Origin: Eledone cirrhosa
Taxonomy: Eukaryota
Length of the DNA: 64,000 nt
Direction of reading: 5' to 3'
NCBI GenBank assembly: GCA_964016885.1
Contig: OZ024743.1
Location: 372,558,001-372,622,000 of the forward strand
The notes beneath the pieces were generated by a model. The model searched no databases and was not told where the DNA came from. It saw only the letters and a program-made list of their open reading frames with translations. Both the position numbers and the translations under genes were made by a program. Shown here piece after piece: positions 17,078 to 61,249 of the stretch (positions are counted from its first letter, which is position 1; each line of letters begins with the position of its first letter).

Positions 17078-18377
17078 CAGGTTGCGGACGATATTTGTTC
17101 GCAAGATTACTGTCTAGGAAAAAATAAACAGTAGTTTTATTTTTTAAGATATATTTATCAAACTTGGGTCAGTTTGTCTTCATCACTTGTTCTTTCGATC
17201 TCACTCAATAAACCCGCCATTGGCTTTGATGACGGCCTCAAGGCGGCCTCGGAACCGGCTACAGGCCTTTGTCACTGTCCCCCGACTTAGGCCCCTAAAG
17301 GCACTTGTGATCCTGGCCTTCAGATCGTCTTTCATATTGCAGCTAGATCTGTTGGTGTCTCGTTCCACTGCGCCCCACACAAAGAAATCGAGGGGGTTGC
17401 AGTCAGGCGAGCTGGGAGGCCAGATGTCAGGTGAAGTGTGGTCGACAAAGTTCTCTGACAGCCAGGCTTGGGTCTTTCGGCTGGTATGGCAGGGCGCTGA
17501 GTCTTGCTGCCACACGTACGGCCTACCTGAAGCTATCTGGTCGATCCAGGGATTTACTACCTTACTCAGAATGCGGATGTAGCCATCGGTGTTCAGCTTG
17601 AGGCCCTCAGGGAAGAAGTGAGGTGGCATGACGTCCCCTTGACTGCTGACGACACCTAAGACCAATGTTGTCGCTGGAAACTTTGTCTGCATGACTCTGG
17701 GCACGTCTTTGGATGAGACAGCATGCCACCTGTTGTTCTGGGAGTTGATCTTCTGGTCTTGGCAGAAGTTTTTCTCGTCGGAGAAAAATCACAGCATGTC
17801 TGGCTCCAGTGGGTGTTTCAACTTGTTGATCAGCTTCTTTGTGTGCTTCAGTCGCTTTTCTTGCATCGCTTTTGACAGAAATTCTCCTTTCCTCATCTTG
17901 TATGAAATGTAGCGAATGTCTTCATGTACCACCAACCTAATGAGCTTTTCATCCACGCCTTTCTCCCTTGCAATGGCATGTATCGACTTGCTAGGTTCAT
18001 TGTTGATGATATCCTAAACTTCAGCGACGAACTTGGGCATTCTGAAGGAGTCAGATCGTTGATCATGTGTTTTCCTCTCTGATGTTGCTTCGTAGTCGAA
18101 TCCTGAATCTTCCTATTCCTTTCTGACCTTTTCCACCATTCTCCTGCTGACGCTGAGAAAGTCTGAAATTTCCTTATTTGTCCTCCCAGTGCGGATTCCA
18201 AGAAGAACTCCGTGTCTCTTCCACAAATTTGGAGGTTCAAAATTATTCATAATCAATTATTCTGAAAATAAATAATGGAAATATAGTCACTGTTTTTATG
18301 AAGACACGAGTGACAACGGAAGAAAAAAATTTGCATAAAATTAGCAGTTGAAAATTGCGAACAAATATCGTCCACAC
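17078..18377 (-). mobile_element. Tc1/mariner DNA transposon, DD37D (maT) family; right TIR lacks terminal bases
   Basis: TA + CAGGTTGCGGACGATATTTGTTCGCAA at left; TTGCGAACAAATATCGTCCACAC at right; about 1.3 kb. Confidence 0.92.
17201..18250 (-). pseudogene. Disrupted DD37D transposase
   Basis: FFSDEKNF, WQQDSAPCH, WPPSSPDCNPLD with 37 residues between D2 and D3; ATG at 18250; broken into several frames. Confidence 0.9.
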
Positions 18378-18434
18378 GCTAAGGTGAAACAATTGTTCTC
18401 GTTATGGTGAACTACCTGTTGTGTAACCACTTCT
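18377..18434 (+). mobile_element. Penelope-like 3'-end fragment (3' half of minimal hammerhead)
   Basis: CGCTAAGGTGAAACAATTGTTCTCG..GTGTAACCACTTCTA matches 61055-61113. Confidence 0.8.
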
Positions 18435-18451
18435 ATATATATATATATATA

Positions 18452-18538
18452 CAGGGTGTGGACGATATTTGTTCGCAATTTTCCACTGCTAATTTTATGC
18501 AAATTTTTTTTGCTTCCGTTGTCACTCGTGTCATCATA
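18452..18538 (+). mobile_element. Extra inverted copy of the maT 5' terminus (complete TIR + about 60 bp)
   Basis: TA-CAGGGTGTGGACGATATTTGTTCGCAA; reverse complement of 18297-18377 with few differences. Confidence 0.9.
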
Positions 18539-18959
18539 TATATATATATATATATATATATATATATATATATATATGTGTGTGTGTGTGTGTGTGTGTG
18601 TGTATATACTGGGGGCTGGGGATTTTTCAGTAGTCTTATTTTTCTTGCATGATTTCACTGCACTACTAAGTGCACTGATCCATGCAACTTAGGTACATGG
18701 AGTAATTTGTTTTGGTTTTGAAAGTACTGGTGGATGCAGCACAACCAAATGGTTAAGAAGTTTGCTTCGCAATCATTAGGTCCTGGGTTCAGACTCATTC
18801 ACCCCACTTTCCCTCTCTCCTTCTGTCTCTGATCCCTGTCTCATCCTCCCACCCACCATTTTCACTGCGCTACTAAATGCACTACTCTGTGCACCTTGAG
18901 TACATGCAATAACTTGCTTTTGGTTTTGAATTGTCTATTGTATTGAAAGTACTGGTAGA

Positions 18960-19330
18960 TGAAGCACAGCCAAATGGTTAAGAAGTTTGCTTCACAATCC
19001 TGAGGTTCTCAGTTCAATCCCACTGTGCAACATCTTGTGCAAGTGTCATGTACATAGCCTCTGGTTAATCCATCTCTTGTAAGGGAAACTGAGTAGAGAG
19101 AAACTGTTTGGAAATCAGTTGGGCGGACTGTACTTATAATTCAAAGGACCAGCTTTGCCATACACTGCAGTTCAAAAGGCCAGTCTTGTCACAGATGGTA
19201 ATGCAAAGGGCCAGCTTTGTCATGCATTGTATCATGCTGAATCTCCCTGAGAATTAAGTTAAAAGTAGATGTGTCTGTGGAATGCTCAGAGCCTTACATG
19301 TTAATTATATAAGCAGGATGTTCTGTTGAT
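18960..19330 (+). mobile_element. Degraded tRNA-derived SINE (head duplicated at about 18735-18800)
   Basis: TGGTTAAGAAGTTTGCTT..CAGTTCAATCCCACTG..CAAGTGTC; related segments at 12.5-12.9 kb and 47.1 kb. Confidence 0.55.
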
Positions 19331-19559
19331 CGAACAACTGAAACATTCATTTTCAAAAACTAGAGAGGTCCATCAATATATGTACAGTACCTAATAGTGC
19401 TATTTTCTATGTATAACTATAACTGTAGGAGTTGTAGGGGCGCCTCAGTCATATATAGTCTTTCTTGGACATTTTTTAAACAAGTCTGGACGCAGCCAAT
19501 TTCTTTCAGAGAAGGAGAAAGATAAATGAGAGAGAGGAAGTGAAAAAGAGATCTAGAGG

Positions 19560-19725
19560 GAGAATCGACTCCAGTACTGGACTGGTTCTTTTATATTGAA
19601 CTTGAAAGAATGAAAAGCAAAGTTGACCTCAACAGGATTTGAAATCAGATTACAGAGAACCAGAACAAATGCCACAATTCAATCCATCCAATGTTTTAAA
19701 AATGACTCTGCCAATTTGTTGCCTA
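19560..19725 (-). mobile_element. Degraded Nin-type SINE
   Basis: Similar to 15590-15774. Confidence 0.6.
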
Positions 19726-20285
19726 TATTTTTTTTTATACAACCCATGCTGGCATAGAAAAATGGACGTTAAATGGTGATGATGATGATGATGATATTTG
19801 TAAGGCCTTGTGTTTTGGGATATGTATAATTTGCTAGTTTTGGTATTACCATTTCCAGAGAACTTTGGGAATGGCTAAAGATACATGCAGACATGTTTAT
19901 TCCCATATCTTTTTATTTGAATAGTTTCTCTATTTCTTTGAGAAGTACAAAATAGTCTGTTAGGTTTAATATGTTGATTAAGAAGCACTTTGATTTCCAA
20001 TGATTTTTTATAAGCTTCCTATAGTCCCAGGATGTCCTTCCTATAGCCAACCAGCTTACAAGGTGTACTGGGTACATATTGTGGCACCAATACTAGTGAG
20101 GTTGTCAGTTACTGACCCAACCAAAGTGACCTCTCTGCTCTGATGGGGGAAGAAGAGAAGGAAGATATGTATAATTCCATGGGTGTATGGCAAGTGTGGT
20201 GGGATTTAACTGCTGAAGAGTAGAGTGGGATATAGTGATGGCATGAGCAGCTAAGAAGTGATAGTGGTAGGGAAATGGACGGAAG

Positions 20286-59180: not shown

Positions 59181-59632
59181 TATATATATCTACATATATA
59201 TATTCATATTGTGTGTATAATACATATATGTAGTTCAAAGAAACGACAAAACTGAGATACAAAAAGTCTTATTAGTTTCACACTTTATATGGAATAGGGG
59301 TTTGGAGGTGGAATTATATTTAATGGGTAGAGGTGATCACATAGAGTCTTCTTCATTTGGATTTTGCTGTTGATGTTGAGATTAGATTAGAAGTGTTTGT
59401 AACCAATACCAACACAGACTGGCTTTTGAAAAATGTCTGGTTTTCATTAACATGATATTCTATGAATAACCCATGATTCTGCCATTCTAAACTGTTTATG
59501 TTATAGTGTTTACATTTATCTAAAAAACCTTCTATAATATTATACTCTGGAAGAGTCATGCAGTCAATAAAAACACACTCACCAGTTGAGTTTCACTCTG
59601 GTTTTATAAGATAAGATAATGATAATGAAAAT

Positions 59633-59945
59633 TGTGTACAGTGCTCAGGTGCACTACAACTCATGAAAGGTGCATCTATAGTACATAGAATAATGTACAA
59701 ATGTCAAAAAAGTGAACAGTGTATGAGTCATGATATACACACAGATACAGGCAGGCGTGTTTAAGGAGGGGGAATATCAGGTGTAGTGGTGGTGGATTTG
59801 AAGGATGCAATGTCTCAACAGCTAACAGCTGATGCAGGAAGTTTGTTCTATGCTTCAGCAACTCTAAGCATGAAAAAATGTTTCTGAAAGTCATGGGAGC
59901 TGTACTGTTTTCGGATTTTGTAACTAATCCATTCCAAGGTGATGG
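59633..59945 (-). mobile_element. CR1-like LINE 3' fragment
   Basis: Minus strand encodes degraded FRKHFF.LRVAEA(W)NKLPASAVS..ASFK, typical of a CR1 ORF2 end. Confidence 0.65.
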
Positions 59946-60084
59946 AGTAAATAAAAACAAAGAAGAGACACAGAGGAGAGTCATTGAGTAGGTCACAGAT
60001 GTGTGATGAAAAAACTTTAACATTTAAATAACCATCAAGTTACTACACTAACTGATGAATGGATTAGTTACCTGACTAATAATG

Positions 60085-60270
60085 ATTTCTACTTTAGGCA
60101 CAAGGCCAACAATTTTGGGTGAGGAGAAAGTCGATTAAATTAACCCCAGTGCATTACTGGTACTTTATTTTATCAATCCAGTAAGGATGAAAGGTAACGT
60201 AAAGAGCCATAACTCCAAATTGCAAAGCATATTATCCGATGCTCTACCGATACTGCCAATCCACCGCCCT
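60085..60270 (-). mobile_element. Nin-type SINE (internal deletion)
   Basis: Similar to 58645-58829. Confidence 0.68.
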
Positions 60271-60998
60271 TATCTGAATAAAAAGAGTTACACAAATGAG
60301 AAAATGGGAAAGGGGTAGGGAAGGGCAGATCTGGCTGTATGGGAAAGTAGAGGAAAGGACTATGAAAGCCGAGGTTCCATCATTAAAGCAATTTTTTCAA
60401 GATTGTTTGAAAATCAGAGGTAATATCTTAAACTCAAAATATGATAACAAAAAGGTTAACAAGATTAATCTAGATATGTGTACTTTCACTTTGGCCCAAA
60501 CAAACGAAAATAATGGTTTCATTCCTTTTCTGCATTTCTTTTATGTATCATGGAAGTGAACGATTTAAATAAAAGAATGTATAGTATTTCTGATACATGA
60601 TGTGTTGATATATTCCTGAAGATTACGATCAACATATCTGTTTGTATGTCAACATTTCAAATACCACCATCTTTAACCTTCAAATGCCTTCTCTCACTTT
60701 GTATATATTTACTAAGTCATAGATACTGATTATGGGTAAAATATAAACACAATCTGAATGAAACAATTTTGGTAAATTCATGTTTAAATATCACTAATAC
60801 ACAGACATATCTATTCACTACTTTCTTTGGTTTATTTTATTTTTCTCTACTCTCACACTCTCTCTCTCTATATATATATATATATATATATTATATATAG
60901 TGGTGGAACACTAGAAGGTAATATCCGTAGTGGTAGAGCACTCAGTCCATGGGATGAGTTAGGTAGAAGTGGTTACACAACAGTTAGTTCACCATACC

Positions 60999-61034
60999 GA
61001 GAACAATTGTTTCACCTTAGCGGATCCTCAGCTC
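60999..61034 (-). ncRNA. Minimal hammerhead ribozyme
   Basis: GAG-CTGAGGA-TCC-GCTAA-GGT-GAAA-CAATTG-TT-CTC. Confidence 0.72.
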
Positions 61035-61041
61035 CTAATTA

Positions 61042-61079
61042 CGAGCTGAAGATTCGCTAAGGTGAAACAATTGTTCTCG
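61042..61079 (+). ncRNA. Minimal hammerhead ribozyme
   Basis: CGAG-CTGAAGA-TTCGCTAAGGT-GAAA-CAATTG-TT-CTCG. Confidence 0.72.
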
Positions 61080-61249
61080 GTATGGTGAACTAACTGTTGT
61101 GTAACCACTTCTATATATATATGATGAGTAATATTAAATATTACTCAGTTACAAGTATGAATATAGCTCGATGTAAAATATCAAGTATAATACAGAGCCG
61201 AAATACAATGGAAATAATAATTAAAGAGTATTTAATGTTTCAAACATTT

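Follow-up and report, generated by a model that had tools for sequence, protein, structure and literature searches.

Short and tail ends paired in fold-back insertions of Penelope-like elements and a putative hammerhead retrozyme in the genome of Eledone cirrhosa

Small inverted repeats are found in (TA)n tracts along a 64,000-nt stretch of Eledone cirrhosa contig OZ024743.1 (positions 372,558,001 to 372,622,000; the window), and they raise the question of how an insertion can present an element 3′ end at both flanks and yet carry an extra tail at only one of them.

Fold-back sites in the window

A first-pass annotation listed eight fold-back sites (as at least eight insertions), of which seven are real head-to-head insertions in (TA)n (21444–23537, 25741–25880, 26273–26442, 27348–27551, 29398–30271, 53817–54009 and 60899–61113); the exception is the site at 18.4 kb. 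At the seven sites an element 3′ end does lie at both (TA)n flanks, and each site combines one short (S) end with one tail (T) end, as first described. The tail measures 83 nt in family A, 81 nt in B, 64 nt in C and 55 nt in D, with the T end of the 21.4-kb fold-back stopping ~10 nt short. The features are as follows.

17078–18378, minus strand: Tc1/mariner DNA transposon remnant, not a Penelope-like element (PLE), with a DDE frame at 17201–17788
18377–18435, plus strand: family C solo short arm, 59 nt, half hammerhead without CUGA core
18456–18538, no strand assigned: second, inverted copy (83 bp, 95% identity) of the right end of the mariner, with a (TA)n run on either side
21444–21731, minus strand: family A inverted tail arm, whole hammerhead with core at 21624
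21732–23537, plus strand: family A main short arm, hammerhead core at 23430; a 5′-truncated ORF to 22741 (C-terminal part of the RT plus GIY-YIG), then 3′ UTR and pLTR
25741–25787, minus strand: family B short arm (−125 to −81)
25788–25880, plus strand: family B tail arm (−92 to 0)
26273–26336, minus strand: family A tail arm lying entirely inside the tail (−63 to 0), without overlap with its partner
26334–26442, plus strand: family A short arm (−191 to −83), hammerhead without the 5′ strand of helix I
27348–27409, minus strand: family B short arm
27411–27551, plus strand: family B tail arm
29398–29827, minus strand: family D putative retrozyme tail arm, internal (TA)n, hammerhead core at 29761
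29830–30271, plus strand: family D putative retrozyme short arm, hammerhead core at 29957
53817–53956, minus strand: family B tail arm
53951–54009, plus strand: family B short arm, forming a 106-bp perfect palindrome with the preceding arm
54098–54310, plus strand: single insert from another hammerhead family (E), without fold-back
59117–59177, plus strand: B-related solo short arm
60899–61039, minus strand: family C tail arm, hammerhead core at 61031
61038–61113, plus strand: family C short arm, hammerhead core at 61046
61886–62017, plus strand: single insert from yet another hammerhead family (F), with its core at 61918

The 1.2-kb arm claimed at 18.4 kb is not a PLE arm but the DDE Tc1/mariner element at 17078–18378, whose frame matches Pfam DDE_3 at E=2.6e-4, below the curated cut-off. 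The element carries terminal inverted repeats, and a sister copy of it with a deletion has TA at each end. The inverted repeat at the site is the right end of the mariner itself, and the sole PLE sequence there is the family C arm at 18377–18435, next to it. The window also contains head-to-head SINE pairs.

Element families and their hammerheads

The link to PLEs made at first pass was confirmed for families A, B and C, which are PLE 3′ ends (RT and GIY-YIG). Family A has a 400-aa RT frame (Atlas score 0.95 to RT/HTH_animal clusters); its RT-like and GIY-YIG-like features score 0.95–0.96, with Pfam domains on a minority of cluster members, and for GIY-YIG (0.95) the domain is present on 11% of the members of one cluster set, with the motifs also seen. 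RT-like frames lie upstream in family C, and in family B the part C-terminal of the RT core is the only part seen. PLE endonuclease frames were found upstream of the B and C cores, matching that of A at 31–38% (tblastn). Three stretches of PLE protein had no match in Pfam, and a sequence search of the PDB found none either. In 12 of the 30 long A copies the tail runs on into the leader, showing that the pLTR of this family comes from a partial tandem, and an ATG lies 79–82 nt beyond the tail end in three of the four A copies examined.

Families A–C all have an inverted 5′-truncated copy and a tail at one end. In the available text of PMC8557442 and PMC3846280, these features and TA targeting make up the published layout of PLE insertions, so that what had been proposed as a separate fold-back system is this canonical layout; the origin of the tandem and inverted structures and of the tail is named there as an open problem (PMC8557442). 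The nearest known kind for A–C is the EN+ PLEs with a C-terminal GIY-YIG (Penelope/Poseidon, Neptune, Nematis). Tails of 30–40 nt are given in the same text, compared with 55–83 nt in A–D, and most inserts here are tiny when set against EN+ PLEs (PMC8557442, PMC3846280).

Hammerhead descriptors match in the pLTRs of A and C, and a U3–A8 variant is present in long B copies. The palindromic helix III, the unpaired base at helix II and the core variant of family B are as in the minimal PLE hammerheads described in the accessible part of Cervera and de la Pena 2014 (PMC4209133). Dual hammerhead motifs 100–700 bp apart on opposite strands are reported there for Schistosoma, and that part does not tie such pairs to a tail rule. 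At first pass a hammerhead, or half of one, had been assigned to every site, but a whole type-I motif is present at only three of the eight (21.4, 29.4 and 61.0 kb). The accompanying idea that ribozyme palindromes are mass-produced is for the most part wrong, a whole hammerhead being present in 9 of 38 fold-backs from random blocks. When two inserts were folded, forcing the hammerhead cost a predicted 64–98 kcal/mol against the hairpin, suggesting that the palindrome hairpin buries the hammerhead and that most products have no complete or foldable ribozyme. No hammerhead family appeared among the best 150 of 266 Rfam matches, which held only hairpin or low-complexity miRNA-like matches below gathering and one weak tRNA/SINE match.

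Family D, judged by its sequence, is a tandem hammerhead retrozyme, with 27 unit spacings of 445–587 nt and one type-I hammerhead per unit; at array locus L272, no long ORF was reported beyond the neighbouring PLE frame. Derivation from the pLTR of A, B or C was rejected, with no match better than E=0.014. In its tandem 445–587-nt units with one type-I hammerhead each, D resembles the non-LTR retrozymes, for which PLEs have been proposed as mobiliser in the available text of PMC7229834 and bioRxiv 10.64898/2026.07.22.740005. D inserts bear the PLE insertion signature of a fold-back, S and T ends and a TA target, which that text does not describe for non-LTR retrozymes. Family D may borrow a PLE protein for insertion; that D shows no sequence link to A, B or C counts against this account.

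End pairing, truncation and junctions

The pairing was quantified in an unbiased sample of fourteen 100-kb blocks, placed at round coordinates chosen beforehand (1.4 Mb), together with ~150 targeted loci. Among 40 A/B/C fold-backs in the random blocks, 34 were ST, one SS and none TT, and five had one non-standard end. Removal of three duplicated copies left 31 ST against one SS and no TT (p=1.5e-8 against 50:50); the one-sided tail noticed in the window is therefore near-obligate (31 of 32 standard-end fold-backs). The targeted loci, incompletely de-duplicated, gave 63 ST, nine non-standard and no SS or TT (n=72). Family D was recounted with a wider gap, an earlier tabulation having split arrays at long internal (TA)n, and 14 of its 16 standard-end fold-backs were ST. 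The exceptions to pairing are a single SS event in each of B and D and a single TT event in D, which we read as a split array. Tail lengths ranged over 22–171 nt in a de novo scan, and 33 of 38 random-block fold-backs are <500 bp. TATATA lies within ~12 nt of 70 of 76 outer ends (background 12%), in agreement with the location in (TA)n seen at first pass.

Two of the original generalizations hold only in part. Fold-backs are common, but the random blocks contain 34 unpaired arms against 38 fold-backs; our pairing rule allows no (TA)n between arms and splits some long fold-backs into unpaired arms. Similarly, the extended arm is the upstream inverted one as a bias of about 3:1 to 7:1 rather than as a rule, and in 30 long A copies the inverted arm was T in 16, S in five and absent in nine. 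An assembly artefact, raised as a possible refutation, is not the source of the palindromes, because the arms differ by 3–5% and the end-points recur in short-read contigs. Loose TA ends occur at both of them in X1 and X4, runs from two samples, and joints between opposite strands occur mainly in X1, which may be the assembled individual.

The tail is absent from the short arm in every case, the two 3′ ends are fixed, and the tail arm often stops inside the tail or just beyond it. In 99 events the tail arm was more 5′-truncated in 40, less in six, within 10 nt of its partner in 47 and unresolved in six. The tail arm lay entirely inside the tail in 21 of the 99, leaving arms without overlap; therefore neither arm was copied from the other, and the overlapping cDNAs first envisaged are not required. 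Junctions show little homology (n=113), with 59 blunt or with a 1–3-nt overlap and 28 with 1–30 inserted nt. A single master palindrome behind all micro-inserts was rejected as the main route, as junctions differ between copies. The 5′ stops are sharp in short arms of A (−255 to −264 in 18 of 26) and B (−135 to −146 in 38 of 53), and broad in C (−122 to −167). Short-read contig depth steps at these stops from 19,660 to 961,245 in A and from 92,470 to 2,041,011 in B. The sharp stops of the micro-inserts are possibly the transcript start; none of 12 long A copies that reach the upstream pLTR stops at −260, which counts against a strict transcript-start model. The hammerhead cut site was rejected as the 5′ boundary, as arms run beyond it.

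Two priming sites and the alternatives

The strict S and T pairing, the non-overlapping arms and the alleles shared by arms in A and B support the two-primer, two-offset priming originally proposed. The A–C and D inserts are truncated insertions in (TA)n, and we consider it likely that each arose from a pair of priming events at two fixed RNA sites. Each nicked target strand would prime at its own family-specific site on RNA from one source, and the two cDNAs would then likely be joined end-to-end, head to head. Both primers may act within one RNP, where the distal (tail) cDNA would stall at the proximal cDNA or displace it, and priming on the upstream pLTR could yield micro-inserts as run-offs at the RNA 5′ end. 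In L1 twin priming, two target-strand primers use one RNA, with inversion and end-joining through short microhomology. Here, in contrast, both starts fall at fixed positions inside the RNA, and the cDNAs, which frequently overlap, form a palindrome rather than adjoining segments. The stricter version, that PLE insertion is obligate fixed-offset twin priming by one RNP on one RNA at two sites one tail-length apart, with upstream-pLTR priming giving run-off micro-palindromes, is put forward tentatively, as a possibility we stop somewhat short of favouring.

In A and B the two arms have subfamily alleles in common; in C no such sharing was demonstrable. Alleles were discordant at 3 of 227 comparisons in B (83 expected) and at 21 of 140 in A (62.5 expected), with eight of the 21 at one edge site, and 28 rare alleles are common to both arms. 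In 11 B events with an arm overlap of ≤12 nt, tail alleles fit the subfamily of the short arm (rho 0.67 vs 0.04 permuted, P=0.001; positive control 0.70); the same test in A, based on one tail site, gave P=0.15. Concordance was not found in family C (5.1% within events vs 5.2% permuted, P=0.47). Conversion followed by deletion could mimic allele sharing. A-to-I editing was rejected as a general cause of arm differences, as there is no consistent A>G excess (A>G vs T>C: 16/716 vs 14/952 in A, 3/408 vs 11/656 in B, 16/519 vs 7/702 in C). The shared alleles fit one RNA molecule and two RNAs of one locus or burst alike and cannot separate them. Two RNA copies from one source locus, one template per arm, in an asymmetric dimer or as both pLTRs of a tandem transcript, would predict the same subfamily concordance and agree with the predicted PLE dimer (PMC11167929) and with the arms of family C, which differ at the sole polymorphic site (−127) in 7 of 12 events. 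Such a scheme needs an extra asymmetry to forbid SS and TT (1 and 0 of 32), and the greater truncation of the tail arm (40 vs 6) looks as if the other cDNA blocks it on the same molecule; we regard it as rather unlikely.

Less probable still is a self-priming fold-back, closest to the available accounts in PMC3846280 and PMC8557442, in which one cDNA or antisense template copies itself, the endonuclease trims one end and a later deletion shifts the centre. The alleles common to both arms, rare ones included, would follow from it, as would the 47 of 99 events symmetric within 10 nt and some family A junctions that form perfect palindromes around a hexamer which is naturally self-complementary. 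The 21 events with non-overlapping arms speak against it, as do the overlap of ≤3 nt at most junctions and the bias of truncation towards the tail arm (40 vs 6), with no shift in the 5′ stop of the short arm. Finally, independent opposite insertions into one (TA)n, DNA-level MITE-like elements or assembly chimeras, although they do account for the 18.4-kb site and the SINE pairs of the window in a (TA)n that is palindromic and crowded with elements, are refuted for A–D and hardly credible, as there is no (TA)n between the arms, pairing is strictly S with T, arms are of the same subfamily, a copy derived from a mariner has both of its ends flush (0 and 5 nt), and end-points and strand-switch joints recur in short-read contigs.

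Priming at two sites has a precedent in vitro. The Poseidon_Ac protein, a predicted dimer, cuts and extends both strands of an AT-rich target and starts inside the RNA at two sites bounding the tail, with uncleaved RNA as template (Frangieh 2024, PMC11167929); arms here run beyond the hammerhead cut site, like that template. For Poseidon_Ac the two strands showed no difference in start site, whereas S and T are paired per event here, and the accessible text contains neither two-site pairing in one event nor an inverted arm (PMC11167929). Our literature search, made without supplements, Arkhipova 2006 and Evgen'ev and Arkhipova 2005, did not find twin priming named for PLEs or tail pairing quantified. 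Both the layout and the priming by PLEs on each strand from two RNA sites have already been published (PMC8557442, PMC3846280, PMC11167929). Our data add the non-overlapping arms, allele sharing in A and B, sharp 5′ stops and a putative retrozyme under the same rule; pairing, non-overlap and allele sharing are quantified here and not in the available text of published EN+ PLE accounts (PMC8557442, PMC3846280).

With tens of young events per megabase, the qualitative remark that the tail is often one-sided becomes a set of numbers that separate models: near-obligate pairing, possible non-overlap and a common source of the arms. They provide a concrete prediction for the in vitro system already established, and a signature by which retrozymes can be attributed to mobilisation by PLEs; its presence on a tandem retrozyme, if true, would be direct evidence from a genome that PLE proteins insert animal retrozymes. 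The palindromes look like MITEs or miRNA precursors and may be misannotated, and their transcripts, if there are any, would be double-stranded RNA and not ribozymes. If obligate twin priming is true, it would have produced ~70,000 palindromes of less than 500 bp from three families in a 3-Gb genome.

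Fold-backs and other elements of the window

The animal assembly is 3.0 Gb, and the window is AT-rich and dense in (TA)n. In a self-comparison of the window, each of the eight sites where the first-pass annotation had described fold-backs in (TA)n with a one-sided tail showed a local inverted repeat. Mapping of natural family references confirmed this at seven sites, each with two head-to-head arms presenting one short end (S) and one tail end (T) to (TA)n, but not at 18.4 kb.

Fold-backs with S and T ends
21.4 and 26.3 kb: family A, 3′ end of a Penelope-like element (PLE)
25.7, 27.4 and 53.9 kb: family B, PLE 3′ end
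61.0 kb: family C, PLE 3′ end
29.4 kb: family D, tandem hammerhead retrozyme

The 18.4-kb palindrome was misread as a hammerhead fold-back. The stretch 17078–18378 is a Tc1/mariner containing a DDE frame bounded by terminal inverted repeats (TIRs), a sister copy with an internal deletion exists elsewhere, and the 83-bp repeat is the element's own right end; family C is confined to 18377–18435. Within 17078–18538, the right TIR of this mariner lacks its last 4 nt at the PLE junction and is followed by (TA)9 and an inverted 83-bp copy of the mariner's end. Inverted tRNA-like SINE copies flanking simple repeats (14212–14931 and 26719–29249) are probably separate insertions into the same tracts. 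The window also holds LINE-type frames, presumably L1/Tx1-like and RTE-like by their motifs, the one at 49087–52716 (−) being nearly intact at about 1,200 aa.

Other features
54098–54310; 61886–62017; about 61130–61330 (−); 57315 (−): solo inserts with hammerhead-like cores
476–3685; 4362–5792; 40742–43153; 49087–52716 (all −): long LINE-type open frames

In family A, the tail continues into a leader in 12 of 30 long copies and the ORF starts 79–82 nt beyond the tail end in three of four copies checked, so the tail is where the following unit of a partial tandem begins. Families B and C have upstream endonuclease frames related to that of A; the 3′ 300 nt of the three, compared as DNA, showed no relationship. 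Family D is a non-LTR retrozyme, with a non-coding tandem unit of 445–587 nt and one hammerhead in each. Its unit holds internal (TA)n (e.g. loci L108, L109 and L112), which forms a third end-point and is also a target of further insertions.

Generality of the S and T pairing

In 14 random blocks of 100 kb, at round coordinates fixed beforehand, the 40 A/B/C fold-backs comprised 34 pairing S with T (ST), one SS, no TT and five with a non-standard end. With three duplicated copies removed, 31 ST stand against one SS (p = 1.5e-8 against 50:50); the one-sided tail holds in this 1.4-Mb sample. Targeted loci (n = 72) gave 63 ST and nine non-standard. Family D gave 14 ST, one SS and one TT; in four more an end lay at internal TA or at some other point, and 10 had a different layout. 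A family-blind scan between (TA)n runs found 177 segments with an inverted pair; 74 were flush at one end with a 22–171-nt extension opposite, the lengths clustering by family, and 26 were flush at both ends, some being products of splitting at internal TA runs. Families E and F, represented in the window by the solo inserts at 54098–54310 and 61886–62017, have at other places an extension on one side of about 142–152 and 88–91 nt.

Most random fold-backs (33/38) are shorter than 500 bp. Genome-wide, the three families would hold roughly 70,000 of these, an order of magnitude only, since density is very uneven among blocks. Unpaired arms (34 in the random blocks) are similarly frequent. Short-read contigs reproduce both end-points in two samples, and also contain strand-switch joints and abrupt depth changes at the 5′ stops. 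Families A and B are also present in run X4, a second sample, and in run X5, labelled another organism, at low depth with a few matching contigs.

Each insertion had been said to carry a whole or half hammerhead, and a structural descriptor found a whole type-I motif at only three of the eight sites. Whole hammerheads occur in 9/38 random fold-backs (A 6/7, B 2/27, C 1/4), and in the two inserts folded the perfect hairpin is predicted to beat the hammerhead fold by 64–98 kcal/mol; mass production of ribozyme palindromes thus finds little favour. Long family B copies have a U3-A8 hammerhead variant, and B micro-inserts begin within helix II, without the core. Excerpts of PMC4209133 already describe this variant, and report poor cleavage by minimal PLE hammerheads, even as dimers. 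The inserts are likely to be either inert or sources of double-stranded RNA.

Arm relations and mechanism

Subfamily alleles were discordant between arms in 3/227 comparisons for family B (83 expected) and 21/140 for family A (62.5 expected); family C gave no concordance (P = 0.47), its single polymorphic site being discordant in 7/12. In 11 family B events of little or no arm overlap, including one duplicated pair, tail and short-arm haplotypes match (P = 0.001); the corresponding comparison in family A, which had one tail site, gave P = 0.15. Junctions are mostly blunt, overlap by 1–3 nt or contain short inserts. The discordant family C site, at −127 (window 61046–61052 versus 61025–61031), is a variable hammerhead core base, where the arms disagree in those 7/12 events; A and B polymorphic sites behave otherwise. 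Negative positions are numbered backwards from the tail end, set at 0, of a natural reference copy.

A PLE studied in vitro cuts both target strands and extends them, starting at two internal positions that delimit the tail (PMC11167929). Together with arm non-overlap, shared alleles and junction types, this makes the best model one in which two primers would copy RNA of one source from two fixed sites and the cDNAs would then be end-joined. Priming of both strands at two offset sites, as first proposed, is retained; the proposed overlap of cDNAs is absent in 21 of 99 events, where the tail arm lies wholly inside the tail. The template may be one RNA molecule or, less probably, two of the same locus. 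Simple cDNA self-priming as the source of the second arm is argued against by those 21 events, in which neither arm can have been copied from the other, and by the more truncated arm being the tail arm in 40 events versus the short arm in six (n = 99).

The 5′ stop is at −260 in family A and at −141 in family B, in each case at a pyrimidine-A step. Penelope transcripts begin within the upstream pLTR, the PLE repeat (PMC2377424, in part), so these stops could represent cDNA run-off at the transcript start; counting against this, none of 12 long A copies halts at −260. At the family C tail end, three loci (L007, L030 and L271) have the last 10–30 nt as short direct repeats and a fourth, L024, terminates at an internal look-alike, which suggests that slippage or re-priming may occur at the distal start.

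Relation to known elements

For PLEs, excerpts of PMC8557442 and PMC3846280 already describe a truncated copy in inverted orientation, a tail confined to one end and (TA)n targeting, and hammerhead pairs on opposite strands 100–700 bp apart were already known (PMC4209133, in part). An octopus repeat annotation names Penelope families, and these structures are absent from the portion seen (PMC13282606). The literature searched, its scope excluding older reviews and supplements, held no count of the pairing and no PLE twin-priming model. The feature is real and abundant and of a known kind, the canonical PLE insertion structure in miniature. PLEs have been proposed to mobilise retrozymes (excerpts of PMC7229834 and bioRxiv 10.64898/2026.07.22.740005), and the lasting value of these data lies in the limits they set on PLE mechanism and in the PLE signature on a retrozyme.
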